Shown piece after piece: positions 42,001 to 57,061 of a stretch of 64,000 bases of DNA. This DNA is from a virus, in IMG/VR virus record IMGVR_UViG_3300028388_003025, positions 15,121 to 79,120 of that record; one strand, written 5' to 3'. A program made the translations under genes and the position numbers. Under the pieces are notes generated by a model. It saw only the letters and a list, made by a program, of their open reading frames with translations. It did not search any database and was not told the DNA's origin. Position 1 is the stretch's first letter. Each line of letters begins with the position of its first letter.

Positions 42001-42836
42001 GCGTGTTCACAACAGCACAAGAATTCGTTCCATCATCTATAATGGTATTTAGGAATGGCGGTTATTTAACCTTAGGTAGTACTCCAAATGGATATACTGT
42101 AACAGATTCAAATGAAATAACATTAGGCAGTGCTTTGACTGCTGGAGAAACTCTTGTTGTGCACTATGATATAGCTGGAGGAGATACGAACTTTGTCATA
42201 TTCAATGAGAACGTTTCTAGTCAAGCACCAGGATCTACATTCTCTTTAGTCAACGCGTTTTTTCCAGACTCATTAATGGTCATAAGAAACGGGCAGGTAC
42301 TAACACAAGGAATAGACCCAGGAGACTTTACGGTTTCTGGAACAAGAACATTTACCCTCAATACTCCAGCAGAAAGCTGGGAATCTATAGTCGTTACATA
42401 CAATAGACAATGGACTACAGTTGCTGCACTTATAGATTTAACAGATGTAAATCTAGAAAGCCCTGCAGAAGGAGATGTTCTTACATATAATGCAACTTCT
42501 GAGAAGTGGGAAAATACAGTTCAAAAAGAATATATTACGCTTAAGGCAATGGTTCCTTCAGTAAGTTCTTATCTAGACATAGCATCTATTCCTTGGGACG
42601 GAACTATAACTGGAGTAAAAATCAAGTGTGACCAAGGTACTGCAAACTTAACTGCTAGTCTATATAAAAATGGCGCCAGCTTAGTCGCTGGACCGACAGC
42701 ATTATTAAATAATAACTGGACAGATCCAGGCCCATTGGCAAACACGTCTGTTGTAATAGGGGATACACTTAACTTAGATGTTTCTTCTTACACAACAGGA
42801 ACAGTGTTACTTATTGAGGTTGAAATAACCCGATAA
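39042..42836 (+). CDS. Large tail fibre / baseplate attachment protein
   Basis: INPGTAY and RYDLVYI baseplate-attachment-like motifs; three ~75-aa repeats (VYHNGVLL, VFRNGGYL, VIRNGQVL); DLTDVNLESPAEGDVLTYNATSEKWEN fibre motif. Confidence 0.75.
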   Translation: MVKGKQVYSAGELYTTSAVNQEQLDREIGDSNLISDLITKGKVIIGDTGLKGVAGSSEFSINPGTAYALQSNDIVRRIALESFIEYEPQMSVDKNTVVVDHKIKPGGTVRVYKAFAANRFIEMESVGEGDGTIAQFDLQYVSDGDDADPNFVYINENAIDPSKWFFTTGSNGQSQKAIKFNQTTSEIETDNAQADWNLTGLILKLSLFNPATLSFINVDVNFVGANPLATNDVVAQIQSAINNAGMNPYYQATTSASKISISSINTGFDKRIKIISSGSTAIGVGLLEYSGANLDTEVAGSGEVTLYDRVYCSYTRYYKDYYGSFSLTDYKTITLNDDLTSEEDQNESIPVIVEYEPDLTYYYGGDEYSIAALPSSGNSRYDLVYIEFKEDKKYHEQFFFNTDTLAPERKTSLSRNVYSYEIKVLSAAEAATNPPHVDIDDLLNSSTGVSPYAIPLFEVLVTDAGAVSIENNIIGSVTGTQDVNYLRLSDYRFYNSNLDNFRRREIDVPIKEQWTVTTGNSTQILNFDEEYGYCIADDYVTVADQNPSGDLVYRDAAGAPAAEDIDNLIFAKITTATPGSEEVTFYRGDPNGTLGVDYNVFTTASNEDWILNYYIRSTIERMPVDILKTLSTNGMAIDSGALTETAKNLRKLRVDFNTVMNGKLTYIKSLQEIKWTATRFLFRDIDGSSVNTLTASAANVAIADGEYAYVIFDRTGATVLNDEVKVDSNPWALHPDYENDLIILGVRDGQDFFYANDSNSGTGGGGEWVEEVNAPATMTGSNQLVIPDADDVADSIYSIGRFVRIETVEGLGAENYYYAQISAVASAPPNFTIDIENVQDKDGTSQTITSGATILSFKYVAMQMKYMGINNDVNPQNKALLDHVSDFSIHNSFKYVFNTENLSSQIGVGGSGLSFTMTSDGETDSIVVYHNGVLLDPASEYTVNSTNSFTIIGNVDPDDSVFVSYALLGQEQGFVFNEDLGVQGIGSVFTTAQEFVPSSIMVFRNGGYLTLGSTPNGYTVTDSNEITLGSALTAGETLVVHYDIAGGDTNFVIFNENVSSQAPGSTFSLVNAFFPDSLMVIRNGQVLTQGIDPGDFTVSGTRTFTLNTPAESWESIVVTYNRQWTTVAALIDLTDVNLESPAEGDVLTYNATSEKWENTVQKEYITLKAMVPSVSSYLDIASIPWDGTITGVKIKCDQGTANLTASLYKNGASLVAGPTALLNNNWTDPGPLANTSVVIGDTLNLDVSSYTTGTVLLIEVEITR

Positions 42837-42840
42837 GCTC

Positions 42841-42849
42841 TGATATAAT
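42841..42849 (+). promoter_or_regulatory. Extended -10 promoter TGaTATAAT at the head of the poly-Ser/radical-SAM operon
   Basis: TGATATAAT 42841-42849; SD aaggag before ATG 42868. Confidence 0.6.
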
Positions 42850-42867: not shown

Positions 42868-43071
42868 ATGACAAGAGAAGGTTTAAGAGAAGTACAAGTA
42901 GCATTCTATTGGGGCGCTAAAACTGCAGCAGAAATAACTACAATAGAAGGATCGGGTGATGCAGCTGCTGGAGACCTTGTTTACAATAGCGACGACTCTT
43001 CCCTTCTTGTTTTCAATAGTACGTCTGGAACATTTGTAGCTCCATATGCCGAATGGTTCCCTGGTTCATAG
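42868..43071 (+). CDS. Small hypothetical protein (fibre-like GDLVYNSD motif)
   Basis: SD aaggag; AAGDLVYNSDDSSLLVFN resembles short trimeric fibre segments. Confidence 0.65.
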   Translation: MTREGLREVQVAFYWGAKTAAEITTIEGSGDAAAGDLVYNSDDSSLLVFNSTSGTFVAPYAEWFPGS

Positions 43072-43090: not shown

Positions 43091-43693
43091 ATGAGTAATT
43101 TTGATATAAAAGAGATACAAGACAAACTTGATCTAGACTTTAAAAGTTTTGATAAAGGCAATGCCCCACAAGATGTTTTGTTTAACTATAAAGGTGAAAG
43201 CACAGAGAATAAGATAGAACTTTTCAAGCTTCTATTAACTCATGGCGCTGTCTTAAACAGCTCAATGCTTTCAAATCTTTGGTTTTTAATTAGATCTGGA
43301 GCAGACTTGTCAGATGATTTCTTTAAGTTAGATGCCGTATGGTTCAATGATCTTGAAGAATTTCTTGATATAAAAATAGAATTGAAAAAAGAAATAGATA
43401 TATTCACAAGAGAACTTGTTAAGTATTACCTTGCAGTTATGGCCTCTGCTTCATATGAAATGGAAGGCTCTGACGAAGGAGCCGAAGGAATTCCTTATAC
43501 ATTCCAAAGAGTATTGCTAAGCACTGACTTATTTTCTTTATCAAATTTAGTATACAAGGTTGATTTAAATACAAAAGATTTACCAATAGTTTCAGGCTCT
43601 GTAAAAATATTGAGTGCACTTGTTGGTAAAGCTAAATTTATAATGAGCTTTGCTGAAGATGTATTAAACAAATCTGTAGAGGTAGATAGGTAA
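43091..43693 (+). CDS. Hypothetical helical protein, coupled to poly-Ser protein A
   Basis: SD ggagg; TAATG overlap with 43693. Confidence 0.75.
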   Translation: MSNFDIKEIQDKLDLDFKSFDKGNAPQDVLFNYKGESTENKIELFKLLLTHGAVLNSSMLSNLWFLIRSGADLSDDFFKLDAVWFNDLEEFLDIKIELKKEIDIFTRELVKYYLAVMASASYEMEGSDEGAEGIPYTFQRVLLSTDLFSLSNLVYKVDLNTKDLPIVSGSVKILSALVGKAKFIMSFAEDVLNKSVEVDR

Positions 43694-44286
43694 TGGCGCC
43701 AACTATATCATATCAAGCAGTAATAGATGCAGTCTTGGCAGACATAGAAGCTAAGTGTTCTAATGTTGGAACAGACACTGTTCCTGCAGCTGCTAAAAGC
43801 GCTGTATATTATTCTGAGTCCGGAACCTATGATCTTGGTGGAGCTTTTGAATTAGGCGCGGGGATCAATTCTGTCCCTACAATTTTAAACCTAGTTGCCG
43901 CAGCTACTGTTCAAACACAGCTTGATGCGTTTTTATTACTACATGGCATGGACAGTGCTAGTGGCAAGATGACATCCAAGTTCTTTTTTAGACTAATAAG
44001 TTTATTGGCATGCTTTTATTCTGCAAGAGTAGTACATGCAACATATGCTGCAGGTCAAAGTCTTGTTATATATAACTCAGGCGCTGTAACTTATAATACT
44101 CCAGTTGTCACTGATGATCAGAACCTTGTAACAATTACAGATATAAACGATTTAATAACAAACTTTAAAGATAATTATTCTAATGTTGACAACATTGCAA
44201 ACCTAGGCTATTACACTTCTGCTACTAGCAGCAGTTCTAGCAGTTCTTCGTCGAACTTTATTGCCTATTTTAATTTAAATGGATAA
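43693..44286 (+). CDS. Poly-serine protein A (candidate precursor/substrate)
   Basis: 9 consecutive Ser codons at 44227-44253, then NFIAYFNLNG*; paralogue of 44300..44995. Confidence 0.85.
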   Translation: MAPTISYQAVIDAVLADIEAKCSNVGTDTVPAAAKSAVYYSESGTYDLGGAFELGAGINSVPTILNLVAAATVQTQLDAFLLLHGMDSASGKMTSKFFFRLISLLACFYSARVVHATYAAGQSLVIYNSGAVTYNTPVVTDDQNLVTITDINDLITNFKDNYSNVDNIANLGYYTSATSSSSSSSSSNFIAYFNLNG

Positions 44287-44299
44287 GGAGTATATATAA

Positions 44300-44995
44300 A
44301 TGTTTCCAAACTTGAAGACCTACGGACAACTATATGACGAAGGATTGGCTTATGTAAAAAGCATCTGCAAAAATATAGACAGCTACGATGTGTCTGTTCC
44401 AGACTCCTTGAAACACGGAGCAATATTAACGAGAACTGCTCCACATAACTTGATTGACCCAGCCGTTGCAGCAACCCCAGCCCAGGTAGATTTAACACAG
44501 ACTGCTATTGCCGCAACATCAACAGCAACAGTAGACTCTCAATACCAGGCATACTTCAATGCAAATGGTTTTACTACTGCATCATCTACGTACGCAAACA
44601 CTAAAGCAATCGTTAATTACATTTCACTTCTTAGTGCGTTTATAACTGCAAGATGCGTCACTGTAAAGAATCCAGAAGCTCCAGCAGAAGCTGAGGTTAT
44701 GTATGACGATGGAGCTGTAACATATCCAACAACTGTAGAAAACAAATATAGTATTGATTACATACAAGAAGAAGATTTTGATGCTCTTTACTCTACGTTC
44801 TTTGACTCAATGTCCAGCACTTTGAAGGTTCAGTTCGTAAGCTCTGCAGCAGCACTTAGCTCATCTTCATCCAGTTCGTCATCATCTAGTTCGTCAAGCT
44901 CATCTAGCTCATCATCGTCTAGTTCTTCTAGCTCATCATCATCTAGCAGTAGCTCTAGCTGTTTGTTTGTAGCGTATTTCAACCTTAATGGATGA
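44300..44995 (+). CDS. Poly-serine protein B (candidate precursor/substrate)
   Basis: 34 consecutive Ser codons at 44858-44959, then CLFVAYFNLNG*; SD aaggag; ATGA overlap with the first radical SAM gene. Confidence 0.85.
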   Translation: MFPNLKTYGQLYDEGLAYVKSICKNIDSYDVSVPDSLKHGAILTRTAPHNLIDPAVAATPAQVDLTQTAIAATSTATVDSQYQAYFNANGFTTASSTYANTKAIVNYISLLSAFITARCVTVKNPEAPAEAEVMYDDGAVTYPTTVENKYSIDYIQEEDFDALYSTFFDSMSSTLKVQFVSSAAALSSSSSSSSSSSSSSSSSSSSSSSSSSSSSSSSSSCLFVAYFNLNG

Positions 44996-45909
44996 GCTCC
45001 TATTTAAAGATTTTACAGTTTCTCTTATGGGAGAACTGTAGTAACGGGTGCGAATTTTGTCTGTTTAAAGATGGCAATTTTTACAATGAAGAAGAAAAAA
45101 TATCCTCTATAGACAATGCTATTTCTATAATAAAGAAAAAAGAAACTATTGATAAGTATGACGGCGTCGGACTGATAGGCGGCGAGGTCCTTGAAAGACA
45201 AACTCCAGACGTTGAGTCTAAGTGGTTTGAATTAATAGACTATATAAATAGTAGCGAATATAAAACAGTGTGGCTAGCAACCAGCTTATTGTATAAAGAT
45301 AATTCTTTACTGCATGAAACAATAAACAGGCTTAAAGATGTACACATATATCTATGTACAAGCTTTGATGTTGAAGGTAGATTCAATGAGATTAAAAAAG
45401 AAAATTGGCATAAGAATATAGCATCAATTGATTACGATAATGTCACGATCCACACATCAATTATATTAAATGATTCACTTATTGATGCATTTAATAATCA
45501 TAAGCGCCTTTTAGATAACGTACCAAACTTTAGCTTTATTGCCCCGCAATTAAATGCTACAGAACATTGGGGAAAAGATCTTAAAGACTATAATAGCCTT
45601 TTGAGAGAGCTACATAACACATATCACCCCGGCTTCTTTATAAAGAACAGGTCAGTTTTGTTAAAATTTGTTAGAGAATTTTTTATGCATTATGGTAAGA
45701 ATATACTTAAACATTCAATTGAGATTAAAACGCATAGTTATGATACAATAATACCAAGCAGATTTTCTGAAGACTATTATAAAGACAAGTGGTTGTCTTC
45801 AAGCAAGTTTAACCTTGGCTGTGGCCACGAGAATTATTCTAAATTTTATTTAGACTCAGACAAATGTGTGTTTTGTGATATTGAGGAGGTTCTTAATTGC
45901 TTAGAGTAG
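44992..45909 (+). CDS. Radical SAM protein, CGH-x12-CxxC family paralogue 1
   Basis: LWENCSNGCEFC, LIGGE, TSFDVEGRF, CGHENYSKFYLDSDKCVFCD. Confidence 0.9.
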   Translation: MSSYLKILQFLLWENCSNGCEFCLFKDGNFYNEEEKISSIDNAISIIKKKETIDKYDGVGLIGGEVLERQTPDVESKWFELIDYINSSEYKTVWLATSLLYKDNSLLHETINRLKDVHIYLCTSFDVEGRFNEIKKENWHKNIASIDYDNVTIHTSIILNDSLIDAFNNHKRLLDNVPNFSFIAPQLNATEHWGKDLKDYNSLLRELHNTYHPGFFIKNRSVLLKFVREFFMHYGKNILKHSIEIKTHSYDTIIPSRFSEDYYKDKWLSSSKFNLGCGHENYSKFYLDSDKCVFCDIEEVLNCLE

Positions 45910-47474
45910 AATTAAATAAAGACGAAGAGTCTGTAATTAATTGCTACCAAATGTATCATGACGCTATAACAACAATACTAAGGCCAGACGGAGAAGTTAT
46001 ATCTATAGAAGAAGAGAGGCTTGTAAGAACTAGACATGCTTTAAGAGATGTGGCCAACCCTAACAAACCCTTTTTAGACTCTGAGATACTATGTAAAAGA
46101 GTCTTCCACAATGATAATGATGGCTATTTAAAAGAAGTATATGCTAACGAGTATGATCACCATATAGCTCATGCATATGGAGCATTAACACAAAGCGGTA
46201 TGTGGGATCAGGCTGCAATATTGGTTGTAGATGGTTGGGGTAAGGACATCAACACAGAAGAGTTTAATAGTATAGCAATATTCTCTGCAAATAATGGTGA
46301 GATAGAAACAAAAAGAGTCTATGATATAGCTTATTCTATAGGCGTCATGTATTCATACTCAAGCGAAATGGTATTCAAGCATGAGTTTACAGAAGGAAAG
46401 TTTATGGGACTGGCCACGCATGGCGATGCAAAGTCTGTGCCAAGGCTTTATACTATTGACGAAAGTACTGGAGATATATCTTATTACAGTGAGGCATACC
46501 CAATAAAAGAAGAACACAAAGTCCACAACAATGGCTGGAATACTCACTTATTGAACTGGATCTATAATGAGGTATATCCTCTTTGCAATAGCGATGCAGA
46601 TTTCGCAGCAACAATCCAAAAAGAATTTGAGCTAATTATGTTTGAACTTGTTAAGTATATTAAGAATACTGTAGGTGGTGACCGCTTAATAATAAGTGGA
46701 GGCTGTGGTCTTAACTGTACGTTTAATGGCAAGTTGCTGGCAGCTAATATATTTAAAGATGTCTACATCCCACCTATGTGTACAGATCAAGGAAGTTCTA
46801 TAGGTGTTTTATCTGCATATAAAAAGCAGAATATAAACAAGACACTTAAATATAATACTATAATCCATCCATTGCCGGATGATATTAAAGAAGTAGATAT
46901 GGAGTGGGTGGCTAACATGCTCAAGTCTGGCAAGATAGTTGCATGGTTTGAAGGTGGCTCTGAATATGGGCCAAGAGCATTATGCCATAGAAGCTTGCTT
47001 GCTGTCCCTAACAAGAAAGATGTAGCAGACAAGGTTAACAGAATAAAAAACAGGGAGTTGTGGAGGCCGTTAGCTCCCGTAGTTCTTGATACAGAGTTTG
47101 AAAAGATGTTTGATTGTAAGCCTGGCGTGCTACACGAATTCATGCTTTCAACAGAGACTGTCAGTGAAGATTATAGAGAAAAGGTGCCGGCAGTTCTTGC
47201 TAAAGACAATACTACAAGGCCACAAATACTCTTTAATGATTTAGACAATTCTGTATTGTATTCTATTATGAAGTCATTTGACTTGCCTGTGTTACTTAAC
47301 ACATCCTTTAATGACAGAGGAGAGGCAATATGTGAGTCTCCAGGGGATGCTATAAGGTTTGTAAACAAAAGAGATAAAGAAGATGTGGTGCTTATATTCT
47401 GTGACGGTAATAAGATTTATAACTATGCTAGAATGTCTAAACCACTATTCAATGGAGATACTGATGGCAAGTAG
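45897..47474 (+). CDS. Carbamoyltransferase (NodU/CmcH/TobZ family)
   Basis: EEERL, HHIAHA, VVDGWG, EGKFMGLA, GGCGLN, EYGPRALCHRSLLA, IKNRELWRPLAP, LLNTSFN. Confidence 0.95.
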   Translation: MLRVELNKDEESVINCYQMYHDAITTILRPDGEVISIEEERLVRTRHALRDVANPNKPFLDSEILCKRVFHNDNDGYLKEVYANEYDHHIAHAYGALTQSGMWDQAAILVVDGWGKDINTEEFNSIAIFSANNGEIETKRVYDIAYSIGVMYSYSSEMVFKHEFTEGKFMGLATHGDAKSVPRLYTIDESTGDISYYSEAYPIKEEHKVHNNGWNTHLLNWIYNEVYPLCNSDADFAATIQKEFELIMFELVKYIKNTVGGDRLIISGGCGLNCTFNGKLLAANIFKDVYIPPMCTDQGSSIGVLSAYKKQNINKTLKYNTIIHPLPDDIKEVDMEWVANMLKSGKIVAWFEGGSEYGPRALCHRSLLAVPNKKDVADKVNRIKNRELWRPLAPVVLDTEFEKMFDCKPGVLHEFMLSTETVSEDYREKVPAVLAKDNTTRPQILFNDLDNSVLYSIMKSFDLPVLLNTSFNDRGEAICESPGDAIRFVNKRDKEDVVLIFCDGNKIYNYARMSKPLFNGDTDGK

Positions 47475-48420
47475 CGAAGATAAAAGTTGTAGACCTTTAG
47501 GTATTCAAGTATGGAATGATTGCTCAAATAATTGTAGCTTCTGTGTACAGAAGCACTTTATAAAAGAAGTAACGCCACTTCACAAGAAGAAGCGATCAAT
47601 AGGCCTAGCAATGTCTCAGGTTCTAAACAACGATATAATAAAAGAATATCAAGGAGTCATGCTTATAGGTGGCGAGATATTTGGAGGCCAATTAAAAGGC
47701 CTTTATTCTGACTGGTTTGATCTGCTTGAGGCCTTCAATACTGCAGGATTAAAGCATGTAATACTACAAACAGGCCTCATGTATGAAGATGTTTCAGATC
47801 TTATCGAGTCCTTGGCCATAGTTAAAGATATAGAACAGGTAGTTATATCGACTTCATATGATACGCTAGGCAGATTCTCCAAGAAAACTAAAGACATTTG
47901 GGACAAGAATTTGTTGCTACTAGAGAAGCTAAAGAAGAAGTATAAGTTTCAGATCAATGTTTCTGTAATAATGACCCAAGCATTCATTGATGAGTATCTA
48001 GCTGGGAACTTTGTACACCCTAAAGGGGCTGACAGAGTTAGCTTATGCATCCCTCATATGTTTTCTGACCACCGTGATGCTCTTGATAATCCAGATCAAT
48101 ACTCGGACAAACTAAGAGATAGTGAATGTGAATACTCTGACAGGTTTTTGCCATTAAGGGATATTGATAAGCTTGCAGAGTTTGCTCACAAGTTCTCTGC
48201 CCAGTATGGATATGGAGGACTTGGCAGCTTTATAGAGTCAGCACAAGATATAATTCCATCATTTACACAAGACAATGATGTAGAACCTACCGACTTCATG
48301 CCTCGTAGTAGATGTGGGCACCTATTGATAGCACAATGTTATTCTGACAGCAACGAGTGCCTTGCTTGTGATCTTGAAAAACTAATACCAAATATAAAGG
48401 AGTTGGCAAAGAATGGATAA
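47464..48420 (+). CDS. Radical SAM protein, paralogue 2 (start probably ATG 47464)
   Basis: VWNDCSNNCSFC, LIGGE, TSYDTLGRF, CGHLLIAQCYSDSNECLACD; SD ggag before 47464. Confidence 0.9.
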   Translation: MASSEDKSCRPLGIQVWNDCSNNCSFCVQKHFIKEVTPLHKKKRSIGLAMSQVLNNDIIKEYQGVMLIGGEIFGGQLKGLYSDWFDLLEAFNTAGLKHVILQTGLMYEDVSDLIESLAIVKDIEQVVISTSYDTLGRFSKKTKDIWDKNLLLLEKLKKKYKFQINVSVIMTQAFIDEYLAGNFVHPKGADRVSLCIPHMFSDHRDALDNPDQYSDKLRDSECEYSDRFLPLRDIDKLAEFAHKFSAQYGYGGLGSFIESAQDIIPSFTQDNDVEPTDFMPRSRCGHLLIAQCYSDSNECLACDLEKLIPNIKELAKNG

Positions 48421-49216
48421 GTCTTATTGCGCACACCTAGATTCAAACTCTATGTTTGTTCGCTTCAAGGAGAATAGTTCTGACTTAATCTTTAGCTGTT
48501 GTAGTAACAGGGCTACAGATAACTTTGGCGATAAAGAATGTACTATCTCTTGTGATAACAGATCTGAAAATATAGATATGAAAAACGTATTAGGCATAGG
48601 TGCATACGGCAAATGTAATATACAGTGCAGGTATTGCAACTCTTCTCAGGTAGAGGTTAGTAGCGACTATTATGATATACTTGAAAAGAATATATTAGAG
48701 CGACTAGACCTTTCAAAAGTAGAGAAAATGTTCTGCGGTAGTGGAGAGCTTTTCTGTGACGAAGGTTTGCAGTCCTTATACAAGAAGATATTAGCAATAA
48801 ATCCAAACATTAAGGTTGTTATAGAAACAAATGGCATAGCATGGGACGAGAGTATTTTAGATAATATAGGTATGACAAGCTGTATTGATTCCATTCAGCT
48901 TCATTGTCCAGCATATGATGATGAATCATATAAAAAAATAACAGGGTTTAAAGGAGGTTATTCGCTATTTAAGGAAAAGGCAAAAGATATTTTTGATTTT
49001 TCTAATAGATATGGAATAGAAGACAGTGTAATAATTAATATACTGTTGACCCAGGATCTTAATGCTATAAAATATATTAAGACTATATTGGAAGACTTTA
49101 AAGATTTAAAAATTGGTGTAGCTTCTGTCTTTGGCTATGGTAGCCTAAGCAAGAGAGAACAACAAAGCTTGGCTGCAAGATTTGACGCACCTAATATTGA
49201 GTTTTTATTTTATTAA
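48413..49216 (+). CDS. Radical SAM protein with an N-terminal Cys-rich (SPASM/twitch-like) segment
   Basis: YCAHL...FSCCS...ECTISC before GKCNIQCRYC; GSGELF; ETNG. Confidence 0.8.
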   Translation: MDKSYCAHLDSNSMFVRFKENSSDLIFSCCSNRATDNFGDKECTISCDNRSENIDMKNVLGIGAYGKCNIQCRYCNSSQVEVSSDYYDILEKNILERLDLSKVEKMFCGSGELFCDEGLQSLYKKILAINPNIKVVIETNGIAWDESILDNIGMTSCIDSIQLHCPAYDDESYKKITGFKGGYSLFKEKAKDIFDFSNRYGIEDSVIINILLTQDLNAIKYIKTILEDFKDLKIGVASVFGYGSLSKREQQSLAARFDAPNIEFLFY

Positions 49217-49230
49217 TAGGAGGAAGAAAG

Positions 49231-49974
49231 ATGAATGATGCAGAATTATTAGATTTTTTTAAACAGAAATATGCAGGTCATGACTATAATGAGCAGGTGT
49301 TTACAGATAACATAAACCTATTCTCACTTGCTGACGATGAGATTGTTATAAACTTTTGTGGTTGTGAATACAGAGGATGCAACTTTTGTACACACTCTAA
49401 GGATAATGGGCTTAACTATATCCCTATCGAAAAGCTTAAACAAATAATACTAGGCTTGAACATACCTTCAATTGGCCTTTCTGGTAGTAACTTAAATAGT
49501 TATCCAGACCTGGTTGAGCTATATGATTGGCTTGAAGAGAACAATATTACAATCACAAAGATAAGAGGACTTACTCCTGCCGGGCAAGTTGCTAGAGATA
49601 TACTAGACAAGGCATCATTACTTGGTCCAGACGCAGTGGCTATAAGAATAATGGCGGGATCTGACAGAATGCTAGAGGCTATGGGTGCTAATTTTACAGT
49701 TCAAGATATTGAAACTGCTATATCCCTAGCATCAAGTGCGGGCAACAAGGTTTCATTACATGTATTATGTGGATATCCTGGTGATGCTCAAGATAATATT
49801 GATGGTATTAACTCTTTAATTCAATATAATAATTGTCAGGTATGTCTTTGCAGGTTTAACCCACCAGAATGGTTTGAAGGTTCAGCTATGGACGAGCAAG
49901 AAATGCTTGATCTGTATAAAGACTTTAAAGAAATAGATAATTTGTATGGAGAAAATACAAAGTATTGGGTGTGA
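49231..49974 (+). CDS. Radical SAM protein with a MiaB/class-B-like core and Cx4Cx2C motif
   Basis: GCEYRGCNFC, GLSGSNL, AGSDRMLEAMG, LCGYPGD; no obvious B12-binding or TRAM domain. Confidence 0.75.
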   Translation: MNDAELLDFFKQKYAGHDYNEQVFTDNINLFSLADDEIVINFCGCEYRGCNFCTHSKDNGLNYIPIEKLKQIILGLNIPSIGLSGSNLNSYPDLVELYDWLEENNITITKIRGLTPAGQVARDILDKASLLGPDAVAIRIMAGSDRMLEAMGANFTVQDIETAISLASSAGNKVSLHVLCGYPGDAQDNIDGINSLIQYNNCQVCLCRFNPPEWFEGSAMDEQEMLDLYKDFKEIDNLYGENTKYWV

Positions 49975-49978
49975 ATAC

Positions 49979-50905
49979 ATGAAGCTTCCTATAAAGAACT
50001 TTAAAGAGTTTATCCCCAAGCACGAAGAGTATATAAGAAGTAGTATTATATTCTTTCCAGACTGTGATTTTAATTGCAAGTTCTGCATATACAGAAATTG
50101 CCACGACATGACTACTATTGAAGATAGAGAGGTCATACTAAAGAAGGCTATAAAGCTTGTGTCTGATCCAAAGCTTAAGCCAACACCAATACTATCCTTG
50201 GTTGGTGGCGAATTCTTCGGAACCAAACTTAAAGGTCTTGAAGATTTGTGGCTAGAACTAATGACTGTTTGTTACAACTCTGGCTTTGAATTGATACAAG
50301 TACAGACCTCGTTGATGTTTAAAGAGATGCCATTGTTAGATAAGACAGCAGAAATACTCAAAGAAAAGTTGTCGGTCGCTACATCATATAATGAAGAGGG
50401 AAGATTTTCCAATACAAGGAAAAGCAATTGGAGAAAACATCTTGACCACTATAAATCTATAGGGGCTAACGTGTATATAATATATACTCTTAGCCAAAAC
50501 TTTATAGACAAATTATATAATCATGAAGTTTCTTTTGAGCCAGATACTGATAGGCTATTTAGATTGCCTACAATACCGTATGGTGAAGACTGTATTTATA
50601 ATAACTCTGATGAATATTATGAATATGTTAAAAGAAATATAGATAAATATCCTGAGAACTTTTTTATATCAGACAGGGAGAAGCTTATAAGCGTTATAAA
50701 AGAGTATGACGAGATGACTCCAAGAGCATTCTTTGCAAGCATATATTTTGAACGTTCATTTATATTGCACAAATATCCTGATATATATTACAATCATGTG
50801 TTTAATGAGTGTGGACACTCAATACTTGGTATGAACTATTTCAACGAAGAGCATGATTGTATATTATGCGACATTGAAGAAGCTTTTAAAGAGGAGGTTG
50901 AGTAA
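49979..50905 (+). CDS. Radical SAM protein, paralogue 3 (start 49979 or 49946)
   Basis: FFPDCDFNCKFC, LVGGE, TSYNEEGRF, CGHSILGMNYFNEEHDCILCD. Confidence 0.88.
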   Translation: MKLPIKNFKEFIPKHEEYIRSSIIFFPDCDFNCKFCIYRNCHDMTTIEDREVILKKAIKLVSDPKLKPTPILSLVGGEFFGTKLKGLEDLWLELMTVCYNSGFELIQVQTSLMFKEMPLLDKTAEILKEKLSVATSYNEEGRFSNTRKSNWRKHLDHYKSIGANVYIIYTLSQNFIDKLYNHEVSFEPDTDRLFRLPTIPYGEDCIYNNSDEYYEYVKRNIDKYPENFFISDREKLISVIKEYDEMTPRAFFASIYFERSFILHKYPDIYYNHVFNECGHSILGMNYFNEEHDCILCDIEEAFKEEVE

Positions 50906-51820
50906 ATGAGCATGATTCAGTACGGTCTATTCCCTAACTGTTCTAATAGATGTAAGTTTTGTCTTATAAAAGAAAGAGAATTCTTTTCTATGGATCAAGT
51001 AATTAGTGAGCTTGATAAAGTTATAAAGAATATTGATTATATTGATTGGGAAAATAAGTTTGACGCTGGAATATCTCTGCTCGGTGGAGAGATATATTAC
51101 ATAACAGATGAGAAATATAGACAAAAGTTTCTTGAACTTATAGATACTATAATAGAAAAGATATTAAAAGTATCTAAGAATCCTAATGTCAGATTTTCTA
51201 CTGTAACTAATGGGATATATAATCCAGAAAACCTTCTGTTTCCAGCAATAGACAAGATTGCTGATGCTGTCGGAATTAGCAAGGTAGATGTTAACTTTAG
51301 CTATGATCTTAAATACAGATATTCTAGTGAGGAAGATAGGCTACTTGTCCTAGAAAACATAAACAAGTTCCATGAAAGATACAACTATATTACAGGAGTT
51401 CAAATGGTATTGACGCAACACTTAATTGAAAAGGTTAAGGCTGGAGAGTTTGATGTAAATGATTTTGAGAAAGACGTTATCCCAGGAAATTGGCTTGCAT
51501 TGTTGTACCCGCACACAGTAAGGACTGGCGAAGCTCTTGGCGATTTTAATTTCAATAGAAAAGATTTCATTTGGTTTTATAATTATTTAAGAGAGGCGAA
51601 CCCAAGATTGTTCAGAGCCTTCACTAACTCAACAAAGAATAGTGGAAAGTTTAAACACACCGGCTTATTCTTCAAGGGAACGTCAGGAGGTTTTGATCAA
51701 CCGCCTGTCTTGTCTGACGGCAAAGAGTTGATAAACCCCAAGTGCGGCCACTCAATAATATACCAGTGTTACTCAGACTCTGACAAATGTGTCTTGTGTG
51801 ACATAGAATCGATCAGTTAA
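50906..51820 (+). CDS. Radical SAM protein, paralogue 4
   Basis: LFPNCSNRCKFC, LLGGE, FSYDLKYRY, CGHSIIYQCYSDSDKCVLCD; SD ggagg. Confidence 0.9.
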   Translation: MSMIQYGLFPNCSNRCKFCLIKEREFFSMDQVISELDKVIKNIDYIDWENKFDAGISLLGGEIYYITDEKYRQKFLELIDTIIEKILKVSKNPNVRFSTVTNGIYNPENLLFPAIDKIADAVGISKVDVNFSYDLKYRYSSEEDRLLVLENINKFHERYNYITGVQMVLTQHLIEKVKAGEFDVNDFEKDVIPGNWLALLYPHTVRTGEALGDFNFNRKDFIWFYNYLREANPRLFRAFTNSTKNSGKFKHTGLFFKGTSGGFDQPPVLSDGKELINPKCGHSIIYQCYSDSDKCVLCDIESIS

Positions 51821-51823
51821 TAT

Positions 51824-52648
51824 ATGAATTGCTTTAACATAAAGCTAGGCGATCAGCAACTAGAGAGCGGTCCAATAGCGATAATAAATATGATACTCGT
51901 TTGGATGAGGCTTGCTAGCGAATTCAAAGCAACCATTAGTGTTGATCTTAGCCAGTATGAAGCTTATTATAAATGCAGTATATTAGAAAGATATTTTCTT
52001 CCAATGCTAAATAGCGATATAGATACTGGAGTGGACTTTAGCTTAGTTCATTCAATATATCCTTTTGGCTTGCTTGACTCAATAAATGGAGACAAGGATT
52101 TCTTGCGATCTATTTCTGAAATACAGAAAAGAAATCTTGTCTTTAATAATACATGTATTAAAAGAATTGATTCTGACTTAATTCATTTTAACAAGCTCAA
52201 AAAAGAAGGGGCTTCTATTATGGGGGCTCTCGTTAGAGGTACTGACTACCTTAGTATAACTGGGAAGAATGTTCCAAAATGGCCAGACAATAAACGCATA
52301 ATAAAGTATTGTGAAAAGATAATGAATGACAATCAACATACACACTTGTTTCTTGCTACAGAAGATAGTGATGTATATGCAGCGTTTAAGGATAAGTTTG
52401 GAGAACTATTGATAGATATAGACCAGCCAAGGTTCTCTAGAAAAGACTTTGTATTGCCTGGGCAACTTAATAAAAAGCTTTATGATAACAATATGCTTAT
52501 GGCAGATAAGTACATTAGCTCTTTATATGCCCTTAGTGAATGCGACTCTTTTGTTGGCACGCCGACTAGCGGATCAATATTTGTTAGTATACTAAAACAA
52601 GACTTTAAATTCTTTAATATATTCTATAAGGGAGCTGGCAATGATTAG
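51824..52648 (+). CDS. Fucosyltransferase-like (NodZ/O-FucT-type GT-B) glycosyltransferase 1
   Basis: GALVRGTDY, LFLATED, LSECDSFVGTPTSGS match the three conserved fucosyltransferase-family motifs. Confidence 0.8.
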   Translation: MNCFNIKLGDQQLESGPIAIINMILVWMRLASEFKATISVDLSQYEAYYKCSILERYFLPMLNSDIDTGVDFSLVHSIYPFGLLDSINGDKDFLRSISEIQKRNLVFNNTCIKRIDSDLIHFNKLKKEGASIMGALVRGTDYLSITGKNVPKWPDNKRIIKYCEKIMNDNQHTHLFLATEDSDVYAAFKDKFGELLIDIDQPRFSRKDFVLPGQLNKKLYDNNMLMADKYISSLYALSECDSFVGTPTSGSIFVSILKQDFKFFNIFYKGAGND

Positions 52649-53507
52649 TAAATATACTAGAGTTTGTTATAACAATGGCGCACAAGGCATAGGCGGCTTA
52701 TTTCTGATAGGCCTAAAAGGAATCTACAGCAATGTAGACTCGTCCACGCCAGTCATAGATATGTCAGAATCTGCATATTATTGTGAGCAATTTGATAATC
52801 CAAATATCTGGGAGAACTATTTTAAACAGGTTGATATAAGCTTAAATGAACTCAAAGAACTTGCTCAAGATAATGTAACTGTAGTTAATGAATCTTTTTC
52901 TGAGCCCTATATAAAAAGGTTTACATCTAAAGCGTATGATTATTTAAAAGACACTTATGAAAAATATGTTAGCTTTACTGATGATATAGAGAAAGAGTTT
53001 TCCGAAAGCTTACAAGCTATCGCTGGAAAGAAATGCCTGGCAGTGTGTGGCAGAGGTACGGATTATTTATATGCAAATCCTGAAAGACACGCAATAATGC
53101 CAGAACCATACTTCTTACTCGAAGAGGCTGAAAGATTTGTTAATGAGCATGGATATACTCATGTGTTCTTAACAACAGAAGATCAGCATATATTTGATAT
53201 GTTTAAGTCAAAGTTTAATGAGAAATTAATAGCAGTTGATATGCATCGTGTTACAAGACTAGAGGTTCTCAAGGCAGGAACGATATGCAATATACCTATG
53301 GATATGGTAGCCTTTACTAAAGCGTATCTTAAGTCTATATTCTTAATGTCTAGATGTGATGGCTTTATTGGCGGAAGCAATGGCTCAGCCTTAGCTTCTA
53401 TAGTAATGAGAGGCAACAAAGAATTTGGCGACTTGAATATATACTATCTTGGCAATATAAGAAACTATAGAAAGTACAATATATATACTGGAGAGGGTGA
53501 TAACTAA
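52641..53507 (+). CDS. Fucosyltransferase-like glycosyltransferase 2
   Basis: GIGGLF, NIWENYFKQ, AVCGRGTDY, VFLTTED, MSRCDGFIGGSNGS. Confidence 0.82.
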   Translation: MISKYTRVCYNNGAQGIGGLFLIGLKGIYSNVDSSTPVIDMSESAYYCEQFDNPNIWENYFKQVDISLNELKELAQDNVTVVNESFSEPYIKRFTSKAYDYLKDTYEKYVSFTDDIEKEFSESLQAIAGKKCLAVCGRGTDYLYANPERHAIMPEPYFLLEEAERFVNEHGYTHVFLTTEDQHIFDMFKSKFNEKLIAVDMHRVTRLEVLKAGTICNIPMDMVAFTKAYLKSIFLMSRCDGFIGGSNGSALASIVMRGNKEFGDLNIYYLGNIRNYRKYNIYTGEGDN

Positions 53508-54568
53508 TGAGATATGCAGATCCTGATAAAATAAAATCATATCAAACAGAGTTATGGCAAGAGTGTAACAACCTTTGTGCCTATTGTTATCTTGGGCAAG
53601 AGAATAGAAAAACTCCAGATTCTGTAAAAGAAGAGTCACTAAGAATATTTCTTAAGAAGTTAGACAGCTTTGATTTCGAAAACTACAACAACATATCATT
53701 TATTGGCGGGGAGTTCTTTCAAGGACAATTATCTACACCAGAAATAAAAAGGTTATTCATGGAGATAATGAACAAAGTTCATTGCTTTATGAAAGAGGGC
53801 AAGTTAAGATCTGTATGGATAACAGCAACTCTAACCATAGGTGATCAGCCAGAACTTTACGAGGTTATAGAGATGTTTAAAGATATTGAAATTGATCCAG
53901 AAGATAGACAGAAAGGCTTGTGGATATGTACAAGCTATGATGTTATTGGCAGATTTCATTCAGATAAAATGCTAGAGACCTGGCAAACACATATGCTTAA
54001 AATGCATAATGACTATCCTTTTGTTAAGCTAAACACTACCATTATAGTTATGGGCAAGTTGTGCGATATGTATCTAGACAACAAGTTCTCATTTAGAGAG
54101 TTTATCGACAAATACAATACAGCTATATTCTTAAAGCAACCAGGATCTGGCACCCTTAATGACGAGAGGGAGAGGGATGTATCTAATCCTAAAGACCTAG
54201 AGCGACTTAAGAAAGTGATAATGGAAGAGCGAGTCCCAGGGATGTTCCCTAAGAGGAAGCTGTTCTTAAAGTTCTTAACTAAGTTTGCAAAAGAAGAGCC
54301 TGAGTTGTACGATAGATTATACAACATAGAATACAGAGCTGACGTGTTAGTCAGAAACTTTAATAGCATTGACCGTCTTGATAAATCTTTTGAGAGAGAT
54401 AAACATGCTGTAATAGAAGACCAGGCATCTACCTGTATTAATGACTGTGGGCATATAATAGAATATGCTGCATATATTGATTGTGATAACTGTGCCATAT
54501 GTGATAGGAACGAAGTCTGGGAGGCGGTTCATGGCGCACATCACAAACTATTTGGAATAAAGGAGTAG
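53507..54568 (+). CDS. Radical SAM protein, paralogue 5
   Basis: LWQECNNLCAYC, FIGGE, TSYDVIGRF, CGHIIEYAAYIDCDNCAICD. Confidence 0.9.
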   Translation: MRYADPDKIKSYQTELWQECNNLCAYCYLGQENRKTPDSVKEESLRIFLKKLDSFDFENYNNISFIGGEFFQGQLSTPEIKRLFMEIMNKVHCFMKEGKLRSVWITATLTIGDQPELYEVIEMFKDIEIDPEDRQKGLWICTSYDVIGRFHSDKMLETWQTHMLKMHNDYPFVKLNTTIIVMGKLCDMYLDNKFSFREFIDKYNTAIFLKQPGSGTLNDERERDVSNPKDLERLKKVIMEERVPGMFPKRKLFLKFLTKFAKEEPELYDRLYNIEYRADVLVRNFNSIDRLDKSFERDKHAVIEDQASTCINDCGHIIEYAAYIDCDNCAICDRNEVWEAVHGAHHKLFGIKE

Positions 54569-54577
54569 GAGGACATC

Positions 54578-55474
54578 ATGAGTAATAGCTACGAACATCC
54601 AATGTACGAGTTCCTTGTGTGGAATGATTGTGGAAACAATTGTAGATTCTGCTGGCAAAAGCATTTTAATGACAAGACAAAGATGCTTGAGTCAGAAGCA
54701 GACAAAACAAAATCTTTACAAGAAGTTTTTAGAATGATTAATGATCCTGAGTTCTTTGAGGCAGGTTCTGACATATTACTTTGCGGTGGTGAGATATTTG
54801 ATAATCTAAATTACAATCTAGACCTTGCCTTGCAGGATATTATAAGACTTATAGTTGATAAGATTAAGAAGAAGGAGATTAGATATTTCTATATGAATAC
54901 TAATTTGATATACAAAGACCTGACAGACTTGTCAGTTGTATTGCAATATCTTGCTACAAATGATGTACTTGGCAACTTTATATTCACAACATCATATGAT
55001 ATTTATGGCAGGTATAAGGATAAAGAAGCTGAGACATTGTTCCTAAGGAACCTTAAAGTAATCAAGGCAAGCTTTCCTAACATAAACATAGCTGTAAACA
55101 TGATAATGACTAAGCAATTATGTAGCGAAATACTAGATAATGGCTTTTCTATAAAAGAATTCTCTGACTTCTATCAAGTAAAGGTGAACACCATCCCGTA
55201 CATAACCCTACATGAAGATATGCAGCCTACAAAGAACGAGGTATTTAAGGCTCTCTTAAAGATAGACAAAGAACTTCCTGGTTATTTTAAGCACTATACA
55301 GAAAACTTTGATTTAGATCAGAAGAAAATACTGCTTGAGTATATAAAAGATATTGGATACCAGGAGTGTACATCGGAATACGATGATTGTGGCCACAACA
55401 CTAACTTTAAGAAGGCATTTTCTGATGGTTCTTGCTATATCTGTAACTGTAAAAATTTACTTGAATCTATGTAA
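54578..55474 (+). CDS. Radical SAM protein, paralogue 6
   Basis: VWNDCGNNCRFC, LCGGE, TSYDIYGRY, CGHNTNFKKAFSDGSCYICN; SD aggagg. Confidence 0.9.
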   Translation: MSNSYEHPMYEFLVWNDCGNNCRFCWQKHFNDKTKMLESEADKTKSLQEVFRMINDPEFFEAGSDILLCGGEIFDNLNYNLDLALQDIIRLIVDKIKKKEIRYFYMNTNLIYKDLTDLSVVLQYLATNDVLGNFIFTTSYDIYGRYKDKEAETLFLRNLKVIKASFPNINIAVNMIMTKQLCSEILDNGFSIKEFSDFYQVKVNTIPYITLHEDMQPTKNEVFKALLKIDKELPGYFKHYTENFDLDQKKILLEYIKDIGYQECTSEYDDCGHNTNFKKAFSDGSCYICNCKNLLESM

Positions 55475-56177: not shown

Positions 56178-56597
56178 ATGGAAGTTTTAGATTTAGCAAG
56201 AGAGTTCTTAGTATCAAACCCGCTATCAGGTAACCCATGGCAGATATTGGTAAAGCTGGTGTCATGGACATTTATTTCAGCATTCCTATACTGGGTAGCT
56301 GACAAGTTTCTTAATGGTGTCCTAGAGAAAAATGGTGGCGTATATAAAGTTGCAGTATCAAAAGCAAAACTTGGAGTGACAATGTTTGCTGGACTATTTT
56401 TCAAATATGTTATAAACCCATTCATTGCTTTTGTTGAAAGAATTGACGACGAAGGCATCGACAAGATAAAAGAAAAACTACCTAAGTCTGGAGAAAAAAT
56501 ACAAGATGATGTTATTTCTTTGGTTGATGAGATAGTTGTAATGTTTGAGGGTACTGTAAAAAAGTTGAAGAAACTAAAGAAGGACATATCGGACTAA
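56178..56597 (+). CDS. Putative holin
   Basis: Two hydrophobic helices and a charged C-terminus; SD ggagg; TGcTATAAT at 56140-56148; coupled to the endolysin gene. Confidence 0.55.
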   Translation: MEVLDLAREFLVSNPLSGNPWQILVKLVSWTFISAFLYWVADKFLNGVLEKNGGVYKVAVSKAKLGVTMFAGLFFKYVINPFIAFVERIDDEGIDKIKEKLPKSGEKIQDDVISLVDEIVVMFEGTVKKLKKLKKDISD

Positions 56598-57061
56598 TGT
56601 TTAATGACGAAAGAGTAACTGAAAACTTTAAGTCTATAGAATATTTTAAAAAGCAAGACGACTTTGTTAAAAAAATACACGACAAGGGCCGTCCTTTAAG
56701 ATGGTACATAGATAAAGAGCTTGCTCATAGAAACCAGGCAATCAGAGATATACTTAATAGGGCATATAAAAATCCTGTATATGTCAGCATAACCTCTGGG
56801 GCAAGGACTGCAGAATATAATCAGCAACTTAAAGACAGGGGCTATAACGCTAGTGATGTTTCTCAACATATGTTTCAGAGAGCAACAGATATACAGGCTT
56901 ATTACTTTAATGACAATGGAGATAAAGTATTTATACCATCTGCAGACATAATTGAAATACTTAAGAATAACTTTAAGTATGGAGCTTATGGTGCCGTTAA
57001 TGAGTACACTGTACATCACGATACAAGAAATGCAGACGGCTGGGTTGAAATAAAATATTAG
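56597..57061 (+). CDS. Endolysin, Peptidase M15A-type Zn peptidase
   Basis: ITSGART..YN, SQHMFQRATD (H-x6-D), VHHDTR. Confidence 0.85.
   Translation: MFNDERVTENFKSIEYFKKQDDFVKKIHDKGRPLRWYIDKELAHRNQAIRDILNRAYKNPVYVSITSGARTAEYNQQLKDRGYNASDVSQHMFQRATDIQAYYFNDNGDKVFIPSADIIEILKNNFKYGAYGAVNEYTVHHDTRNADGWVEIKY

Follow-up and report, generated by a model that had tools for sequence, protein, structure and literature searches.

Radical-SAM enzymes are well known to mature peptides, but nearly all cases concern short peptides and one or two enzymes, in bacteria. The anaerobic sulfatase-maturing enzymes (anSME/AtsB) are also radical-SAM enzymes; they act on Ser as well as on Cys, converting a single residue to formylglycine by oxidation at C-beta. 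Serial action of different radical-SAM enzymes is typical of cofactor pathways (PqqE, MftC), in which the chemistry takes place on Glu and Tyr of PqqA for PQQ and on the C-terminal Val-Tyr of MftA for mycofactocin. Long, nearly pure Ser runs occur as linkers in secreted glycoside hydrolases of Cellvibrio and Teredinibacter, where they connect one folded domain to another and no radical-SAM genes lie beside them. In Bacillus subtilis the substrate of the peptide epimerase YydG/EpeE, the epipeptide YydF/EpeX, is encoded next to its enzyme (PDB 8ai1-8ai6). In Methanococcus voltae, thioether crosslinks are introduced into a Cys-rich protein in the CrpA/CrpC system, and N-terminal protein domains aid substrate engagement (PMC13692751). 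In the HXS antiphage system, finally, the His-Xaa-Ser repeats of HxsA are matured by the radical-SAM enzymes HxsB and HxsC together with the small protein HxsD (PMC13128918).

A gene cassette within a 64,000-nucleotide stretch of viral DNA (the window) was compared with these systems. It lies directly 3' of baseplate genes and a gene for a 1264-aa fibre-like protein and encodes two proteins with Ser tails, A and B, a partner protein H and a series of radical-SAM enzymes (Table 1). Our literature search found no description of these genes or of the system.

Table 1. Coordinates of the cassette features in the window
Feature	Position	Strand	Description
Candidate promoter	42820..42849	+	TTGAAA-18-TATAAT with extended -10 TG; 11/12 matches; sigma-70-like, best of the region
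H	43091..43693	+	Helical partner protein, 200 aa; predicted all-helical
A	43693..44286	+	197 aa; alpha/beta N-domain (residues 1 to ~178), tail, cap
A, tract	44227..44253	+	9 Ser, no Cys
A, C-terminal cap	44254..44283	+	NFIAYFNLNG
B	44300..44995	+	231 aa; paralog of A
B, tract	44858..44959	+	34 Ser, all six Ser codons used; longest tract seen in the family
B, C-terminal cap	44960..44992	+	CLFVAYFNLNG
r1	44992..45909	+	Radical-SAM paralog; CSNGCEFC, GGE, C-terminal CGH...CxxC
Carbamoyltransferase	45897..47474	+	NodU/CmcH-type; PF16861 7e-44, PF02543 4e-26; phrog_1601 match
r2	47383..48420	+	Radical-SAM paralog of r1
r3	48413..49216	+	Radical-SAM, different subfamily; PF04055, 52 bits
r4	49231..49974	+	Radical-SAM, different subfamily; PF04055, 42 bits; Cx4CxxC
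r5	49946..50905	+	Radical-SAM paralog of r1
r6	50906..51820	+	Most conserved radical-SAM orthogroup; 42-62% identity to a gene in every complete locus
x7 + x8	51824..53507	+	Two paralogs, 274 and 288 aa; no CxxxCxxC, no family match
r9	53507..54568	+	Conserved radical-SAM orthogroup
r10	54578..55474	+	Conserved radical-SAM orthogroup; in all complete loci but L014

The CxxxCxxC cluster motif and the GGE of the radical SAM superfamily were found in eight ORFs of the window (r1-r6, r9 and r10), GGE and the three Cys being invariant in the alignment. PF04055 exceeded its cut-off in r3 and r4 but not in the other radical-SAM ORFs, which scored lower, and phrog_1802 was matched by r2, r6, r9 and r10. 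The paralogs share a C-terminal motif, CGH-x(12-13)-CxxC, and no SPASM/twitch domain was detected in the cassette enzymes with Pfam or NCBIfam. A RiPP recognition element (PqqD-like) gave no match in Pfam or NCBIfam either, and the fold search with the H model returned nothing above Z 4.7. The x7 and x8 proteins were considered as glycosyltransferases and this was rejected, as neither a family match nor a PDB sequence match was obtained.

The best solved relative of the radical-SAM paralog profile is YydG (E 5.5e-7), which resembles the cassette in having a gene-encoded substrate next door and whose epimerisation would suit a pure Ser tail. The match is however confined to the N-terminal half, the radical-SAM core (positions 1-176 in a profile of 310), and does not reach full length. 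In place of a short YydF-like peptide served by one enzyme, the substrate candidates here are two folded proteins, 197 and 231 aa long, which end in a homopolymeric tail and are accompanied by 3-8 paralogs carrying CGH...CxxC. The likeness to anSME/AtsB lies in the interchange of Ser and Cys, and such an activity would explain the Ser/Cys mix of the tracts together with the exclusion of Thr. Unlike anSME/AtsB, the cassette enzymes have no SPASM match, the (C/S)-x-(P/A)-x-R motif is absent from tails that hold no Pro or Arg, and 10-30 tract residues stand here where anSME modifies one.

As with CrpA, a full-size protein is encoded beside a radical-SAM enzyme gene, but CrpC is described as having a SPASM domain, three clusters, an RRE and Cys-dependent chemistry (PMC13692751), while the tails of A and B hold no Cys and one Cys, respectively. 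The Cys donor of the sactipeptides and ranthipeptides (SCIFF, PapB, CrpC) is thus lacking in A and nearly so in B, and the PapB model scored 15-18 bits against a cut-off of 340. Since A's tail is devoid of Cys, a thioether crosslink from a tail cysteine cannot be the common reaction of the family. The HXS system is similar in that at least two radical-SAM enzymes, together with a small protein, mature a repeat-bearing protein effector in phage-host conflict; it is however bacterial and built on HxS repeats, whereas the cassette is phage-encoded and its poly-Ser/Cys tails contain no His. With the HxsB and HxsC models only r3 matched, faintly, at 17-19 bits against cut-offs of 268-370.

The full-length alignment of A with B (28% identity, BLASTP E 9e-7) marks the two as true paralogs. 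The original prediction had described two ORFs with runs of 9 and 34 Ser, the use of all six codons, diverged but alignable N-terminal domains and an identical C-terminal AYFNLNG, and all of this was borne out by ORF and codon counts and by the alignment, the motifs it had quoted included. The 34-Ser run is written with 11 TCA, 8 TCT, 7 AGC, 4 AGT, 3 TCG and 1 TCC, which is close to Ser codon usage in the other genes of the phage. Triplet slippage, already doubted in that prediction, was rejected because of the mixed codons and because Tandem Repeats Finder detected an imperfect 33-nt period (2.2 copies, 84% match) and a 24-nt period; B's tract probably grew as blocks of 8-11 codons were duplicated. 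Four of the seven AYFNLNG codons differ between the genes, all synonymously (GCC/GCG, TTT/TTC, AAT/AAC, TTA/CTT), so it is selection at the protein level, not a recent copying event, that explains the shared tip. Seven consecutive identities at a 28% background would be expected by chance at about 1e-4 (0.28^7). An antisense ORF at 44830-44982 (50 aa, rich in Asp, Glu and Leu) was rejected, as it is merely what one frame of the reverse-complemented mixed Ser codons encodes, and members of the family do not conserve their choice of Ser codons.

The stop codon of H overlaps the start of A (TAATG) and that of B the start of r1 (ATGA), and translational coupling is predicted at both junctions in the window; an AAGGAG lies ~10 nt upstream of the B start. 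AlphaFold2 gave an A model with pLDDT 85 and pTM 0.78 from 95 sequences, in which the tail drops to pLDDT 57-65, and an all-helical H model with pLDDT 89 and pTM 0.84. Neither model had a match above Z 4.7, the best score for H, in Foldseek searches of PDB and BFVD or in the wide VIA-align search, a null result that is no sign of new folds. A, B and H had no family match in Pfam, PHROGs or NCBIfam even at an E-value of 5; profile search of PDB sequences yielded low-complexity noise alone, and the ESM Atlas no usable match.

A profile of the A/B N-domain retrieved 167 cluster representatives at E < 1e-3 (A itself scores 6e-85), which share the motif ITY...CxN with an Asn24 that is invariant in the alignments. 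About half of the family follows a three-part plan of a ~170-aa folded domain, a Ser/Cys tract and a cap; 77 complete and 3 cut tails were counted among 150 representatives. In tailed relatives the tract spans 7-31 residues, almost purely Ser and Cys with a median of 3 Cys, and is encoded by scrambled Ser codons throughout the whole family. Across 106 unique tails from proteins that share only ~25-35% identity in the N-domain, Ser and Cys together make up at least 97% at positions -2 to -12 ahead of the cap, Cys is concentrated at -7 (34% vs 5-9% at adjoining positions), and there is practically no Thr, Gly, Ala or Asn. This pattern indicates a constraint on the tail that is stronger than, and different from, that on a linker. 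The cap, x-F-I-A-Y-M-x-I/L, is the most conserved part of the tailed proteins, with F in 59, I/V in 74, A/G in 57 and an aromatic residue in 65 of 77 tails at successive positions. It is followed by 0 to 4 extra residues, on which ground PDZ-type recognition of a free C-terminus was rejected. A and B carry the N-domain, the Ser/Cys tract, the cap and the H and radical-SAM neighbours that characterise the family, in which the window is an unusual Cys-poor case. The folded domain, Ser core and C-terminal tag of the original prediction thus hold as a plan across the family, with the amendments that the core is really Ser/Cys and that AYFNLNG is a local variant of the cap; gene order makes a reading as leader, core and follower plausible.

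Gene linkage was assessed in 24 loci, namely 23 outside loci from ~16 distinct phages and the window. Radical-SAM genes adjoin the tailed protein in all 24, in line with the rSAM link of the original prediction, with 3-8 paralogous radical-SAM genes in each. The usual order is H, a tailed N-domain protein, most often a second N-domain protein and then the radical-SAM genes; H was found in 22 of 23 outside loci, the exception (L023) being a short 8.3-kb contig. Placement of the substrate gene beside its maturase is general in radical-SAM RiPPs, and the ATGA overlap suggests that in the window the putative substrate gene is also co-transcribed with it. Two N-domain genes stand side by side in 20 of the 24 loci, usually one tailed and one bare, which supports the idea of a pair and fits, but does not prove, the proposed hetero-oligomer. 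Tail-less homologues within cassettes, named beforehand as an observation that would speak against the prediction, do occur, each with a tailed neighbour, and do not refute the reading. Cassette genes are the only genes shared between the window and the outside loci, and whole cassettes are duplicated inside single phages (L004, L017, L022); the cassette therefore appears to move as a unit. A putative substrate, a dedicated partner and up to eight radical-SAM enzymes would thus make up one mobile unit that recurs in many unrelated large phages.

As the family is always found beside several radical-SAM enzymes, the tail is probably their chemical target. Going beyond the observed architecture, paralogy, family and strict gene linkage, we infer with some reserve that A and B are likely substrates of a self-contained phage protein-modification cassette whose radical-SAM enzymes act on the Ser (or Ser/Cys) tail. 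The folded N-domain would present the disordered C-terminal tail to the co-encoded paralogs, probably assisted by H and by the paired second N-domain protein, and the hydrophobic cap (here F-I/V-A-Y-F-N-L) would hold the tail in register while the enzymes act on Ser, elsewhere Ser/Cys, residues by hydrogen abstraction. Candidate chemistries that fit a pure Ser tail are C-alpha epimerisation and C-beta oxidation, and the reaction would probably be one that nobody has described. Against tail modification stand the 3-8 distinct paralogs, which are hard to explain for a homopolymeric tail, the absence of a detected RiPP recognition element or SPASM domain, and the limitation of the YydG match to the generic radical-SAM half.

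The linkage would also be expected if the enzymes made something else that the tailed protein carries or binds. In a scaffold or carrier model, which we regard as unlikely, the chemistry takes place on the conserved cap, for instance on its near-invariant aromatic residue, and the tract is a tether by which the C-terminus reaches the active sites of several radical-SAM enzymes in turn, the product being kept or released. Conservation of the cap, which A and B share although they are only 28% identical overall, would suit such a model, as would several radical-SAM enzymes in series. A tether however needs neither the at least 97% Ser/Cys purity nor an accumulation of Cys a set number of residues before the cap; the extra residues after the cap leave the free C-terminus unfixed, and the cassette holds no peptidase gene by which a product could be freed.

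It is likewise improbable that A and B are virion or tail-fibre accessories in which poly-Ser is an unmodified spacer, the cap is a beta-strand anchor into another protein and the radical-SAM genes are mere neighbours with another job, such as nucleotide, sugar or DNA modification. The position of the window's cassette directly after structural genes is in line with this, as are ORFs matching tail-fibre PHROGs immediately upstream in L003 and L007, the low-confidence prediction of the tail, the weak viperin-like matches of the window's radical-SAM genes and the pure poly-Ser linkers of Cellvibrio-type glycoside hydrolases. The latter nevertheless join two folded domains, whereas only ~8-10 residues of cap follow the phage tract, which in the wider family is interspersed with Cys. 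It is not linker-like for an exposed segment to contain Cys, to leave out Gly, Thr and Asn and to favour particular positions for its Cys, and radical-SAM linkage is kept across otherwise unrelated phage backbones, with whole cassettes duplicated together. That the Ser hydroxyls carry carbamoyl groups or sugars, which the radical-SAM enzymes tailor in place of the peptide, is very unlikely, for although a bona fide carbamoyltransferase lies between r1 and r2 and Ser and Cys are both nucleophiles, that gene is an accessory found only in L017 and L020 among the 23 outside loci and searches of the window's cassette revealed no glycosyltransferase.

Returning to modification of the tail by the radical-SAM enzymes, a bolder version can be put forward tentatively, although it is less likely than not: a multi-enzyme radical pathway may convert the poly-Ser/Cys tail, one residue at a time, into a novel post-translational polymer such as poly-D/L-Ser or poly-formylglycine, the tail being borne by a folded protein that serves in the virion or late in infection. 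If true, protein hypermodification of this class would be without a described counterpart, and many uncultured large phages would carry it as a mobile cassette. Any modification of the tail would mean enzymology of a new kind, on a substrate that could hardly be simpler, and a new route by which phages build a protein of unusual chemistry. The window restricts which chemistries can be considered, since its tails are almost Cys-free, yet the conserved r6, r9 and r10 orthologs are kept.

A word-based homology search with A found A itself alone, IMG/VR scans with the single proteins A, B, P0035 and P0086 found no relatives, and GenBank phages had no match by DNA or by tblastn with B, r1, P0004 or r6. 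The alignments of tail-less family members were too diverged for profile scanning. The candidate promoter overlies the end of the fibre-like gene, upstream of the cassette, in a region whose promoter-like sites are not above chance overall. Two caps from the same phage resemble each other more closely than caps from different phages do, with identity in the window and near-identity in L021, L007 and L004, as expected if the same partner reads both proteins.

Proteins A and B are encoded by neighbouring genes directly downstream of the structural module of the window, and each consists of a folded N-domain, a serine tract and a C-terminal cap. The original prediction had described the two as paralogs with serine runs of 9 and 34 residues and a shared terminal AYFNLNG, and this was borne out: the runs lie within the respective genes, the proteins align over their full length (28% identity, E 9e-7) and AYFNLNG terminates both. 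Four of its seven codons differ between the genes, each synonymously, which argues for selection on the peptide. All six serine codons occur in the 34-residue run, in proportions close to those of the other genes of the phage. That this run is no triplet microsatellite, as had also been proposed, was upheld by Tandem Repeats Finder, which reported imperfect periods of 33 and 24 nt (84% match); the tract was probably lengthened through duplication of blocks of 8–11 codons. The tail (tract plus cap) contains no Cys in A and one in B.

Positions in the window of the features discussed
Feature	Position	Strand	Description
913-aa ORF	8600-11341		between portal and head genes
3098-aa ORF	19794-29090		between sheath/tube region and baseplate genes
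Fibre-like ORF	ends at 42836		1264 aa
Promoter-like site	42820-42849		11/12 matches, extended -10
67-aa ORF	42868-43071		between fibre-like gene and H
H	43091-43693	+	ORF, helical partner protein
A	43693-44286	+	ORF, 197 aa
Ser run of A	44227-44253		9 residues
B	44300-44995	+	ORF, 231 aa
Ser run of B	44858-44959		34 residues
r3, r4	48413-49974		radical-SAM ORFs
x7, x8	51824-53507		paralogs inside radical-SAM array
154-aa ORF	56597-57061		shortly 3' of cassette

Downstream of B, eight ORFs carry the radical-SAM signature CxxxCxxC (or Cx4CxxC), and a NodU/CmcH-type carbamoyltransferase and the paralogs x7 and x8 are also encoded there. The stop codon of H overlaps the start of A (TAATG), that of B overlaps the start of the first radical-SAM gene, r1 (ATGA), and AAGGAG precedes the start of B; H, A, B, r1 and the genes that follow are therefore arranged as a single compact operon. 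The best promoter-like site of the region lies upstream of H and is a candidate only, as such sites are not more frequent in the region than expected by chance. Just 3' of it is the 67-aa ORF, which has no family match.

Word-based and close-relative searches returned no relatives. With a profile built from the N-domains of A and B, exhaustive searching by HMMER returned 167 cluster representatives at E < 1e-3, 28 of them below 1e-10. Among the best 150 of these 167, 77 (and 3 truncated members) carry a tail, defined by a tract of 7–31 residues with a Ser/Cys content of at least 85%; in these tailed members the median tract is 21 residues long with 3 Cys, and the cap that follows, usually of 8 residues, has the consensus x-F-I-A-Y-M-x-I/L. 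AYFNLNG varies on a subfamily form of the cap, (F/Y)IAYFNL-x, which P0002, P0005, P0017, P0027 and P0032 also have. The tract of A is near the short end of the range and that of B the longest seen; only 3 of the 77 tails, that of A among them, are free of Cys. In 106 unique tails aligned from the cap, Ser or Cys accounted for at least 97% at positions -2 to -12, and Cys peaked at position -7 (34% vs 5–9% at neighbouring positions). As N-domain identity among members is only ~25–35%, the tail and cap are the most constrained parts, and the tract would appear to be read in register with the cap. The family is large, and literature searches found no description of it.

Gene order was compared between the window and 23 outside loci, of which 20 came from an IMG/VR scan with the family alignment (contigs of 38–287 kb) and 3 were obtained by scanning species-representative genomes, where they lie in MAGs that carry the labels Bacilli and Succinivibrionaceae; the latter may represent phage sequence that was binned together with bacterial contigs. 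Because several loci are almost copies of each other, the set comprises roughly 16 distinct phages. Every locus begins with H (except L023, an 8.3-kb contig that lacks it), followed by a tailed N-domain protein, in 20 of 24 loci a second N-domain protein, and 3–8 radical-SAM genes, which in the outside loci belong to the same family as r1, r2, r5, r6, r9 and r10. Orthologs of r6 (42–62% identity) were found in every complete locus, of r9 (~32–47%) in all loci and of r10 (~35–45%) in all except L014; among outside loci only L017 and L020 have the carbamoyltransferase. No homologues of the non-cassette genes of the window were found in the other loci, and the whole cassette is present twice in L004, L017 and L022, which indicates that it moves and duplicates as a unit. 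A tail-fibre-PHROG ORF lies just upstream in L003 and L007, like the fibre-like ORF of the window; other flanks differ. A second block of 4–7 further radical-SAM genes, most of them outside the r1/r6/r9/r10 family, adjoins the cassette in L008, L012, L015 and L022–L024, on the opposite strand in all of these but L015.

Most pairs have a second N-domain protein without a tail; it is tailed in the window, L007, L016, L017, L020 and L021. Tail-less cluster representatives match best to such bare second-position paralogs, and within the examined loci every bare copy has a tailed neighbour. In a maximum-likelihood tree of the N-domain, first-position tailed proteins fall mostly apart from second-position bare ones, with exceptions in L007 and L021, where second-position proteins bear tails; A and B group together with moderate support (83/83) on long branches.

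The six paralogous radical-SAM proteins share CxNxCxFC, GGE, TSYDxxGRF and a C-terminal CGH-x(12-13)-CxxCD, the last of which may form an auxiliary, possibly reduced, metal site; it is missing from a single paralog of each cassette in L002, L007 and L017. The best solved relative of their profile is the peptide epimerase YydG (E 5.5e-7, N-terminal half only), followed by viperin, PylB and NifB, all at E > 0.01. NCBIfam matches of the radical-SAM proteins of the window are all far below cut-offs, and phrog_1802 is matched at ~1e-10 to 1e-12. Genuine radical-SAM proteins of other subfamilies are encoded by r3 and r4 (PF04055, 52 and 42 bits), neither of which has a counterpart in the other loci; r4 carries Cx4CxxC and weakly resembles B12-binding radical-SAM methyltransferases. 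The paralogs x7 and x8 (31% identity over ~145 C-terminal residues) lack CxxxCxxC; Pfam, PHROG and PDB sequence searches gave no matches for them, and none of the 23 other loci holds a homologue.

The best-supported reading of these comparisons of sequence and gene order is that A and B would be substrates of the radical-SAM array. Caps resemble one another more closely inside a phage than across phages, which favours this reading, as do the extreme Ser/Cys purity with its positional Cys signal, strict linkage, whole-cassette co-duplication and translational coupling. One rival places the chemistry on the cap, with the Ser/Cys tract as a tether. In a second, A and B would be virion proteins whose tail serves only as linker and anchor, the neighbouring enzymes being unrelated. 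In a third, the serine hydroxyls would carry O-linked groups. As to the reaction on such substrates, a thioether crosslink from tail Cys is excluded as the common core reaction because the tails of A and B are Cys-poor while r6, r9 and r10 orthologs are kept. By analogy, YydG-like epimerisation at C-alpha and anSME-like oxidation at C-beta would both be compatible, and the latter would explain the equivalence of Ser and Cys and the exclusion of Thr.

Full-text literature searches found no paper describing the cassette, and no GenBank phage was found with A-like, r1-like or r6-like genes. The nearest published analogues are two cases of radical-SAM maturation of a full-size protein, CrpA/CrpC (PMC13692751) and the HXS defence effector (PMC13128918); at the enzyme level the analogues are YydG and the anSMEs. 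The cassette differs from all four in defining features.

AlphaFold2 with 95 family sequences gave a confident alpha/beta model for the A N-domain (pLDDT 85, pTM 0.78) and a low-confidence tail (pLDDT 57–65); H was modelled as all-helical (pLDDT 89). Neither model had a convincing fold match in PDB or BFVD (best Z 4.6 and 4.7, respectively), and searches of Pfam, PHROG and PDB sequences gave no match for A or H either.

The IMG/VR record holding the window is 79 kb long and an estimated 72% complete (CheckV); GC content in the window is ~37% and all long ORFs are on the + strand. PHROG matches outline a myovirus structural module of terminase (weak), portal, major head protein, tail sheath and baseplate wedge, in a region that also includes the 3098-aa and fibre-like ORFs. 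The former is in tape-measure position and very long for a ~110-kb phage. The 913-aa ORF matches phrog_16951 over residues 25–221 and, over residues 372–562, a PHROG of ATP-dependent DNA ligase; it seems to be an uncommon fusion within the head module. The 154-aa ORF, with weak peptidase M15 and DUF5715 matches, is probably an endolysin, which would place the cassette between the tail-fibre and lysis genes.
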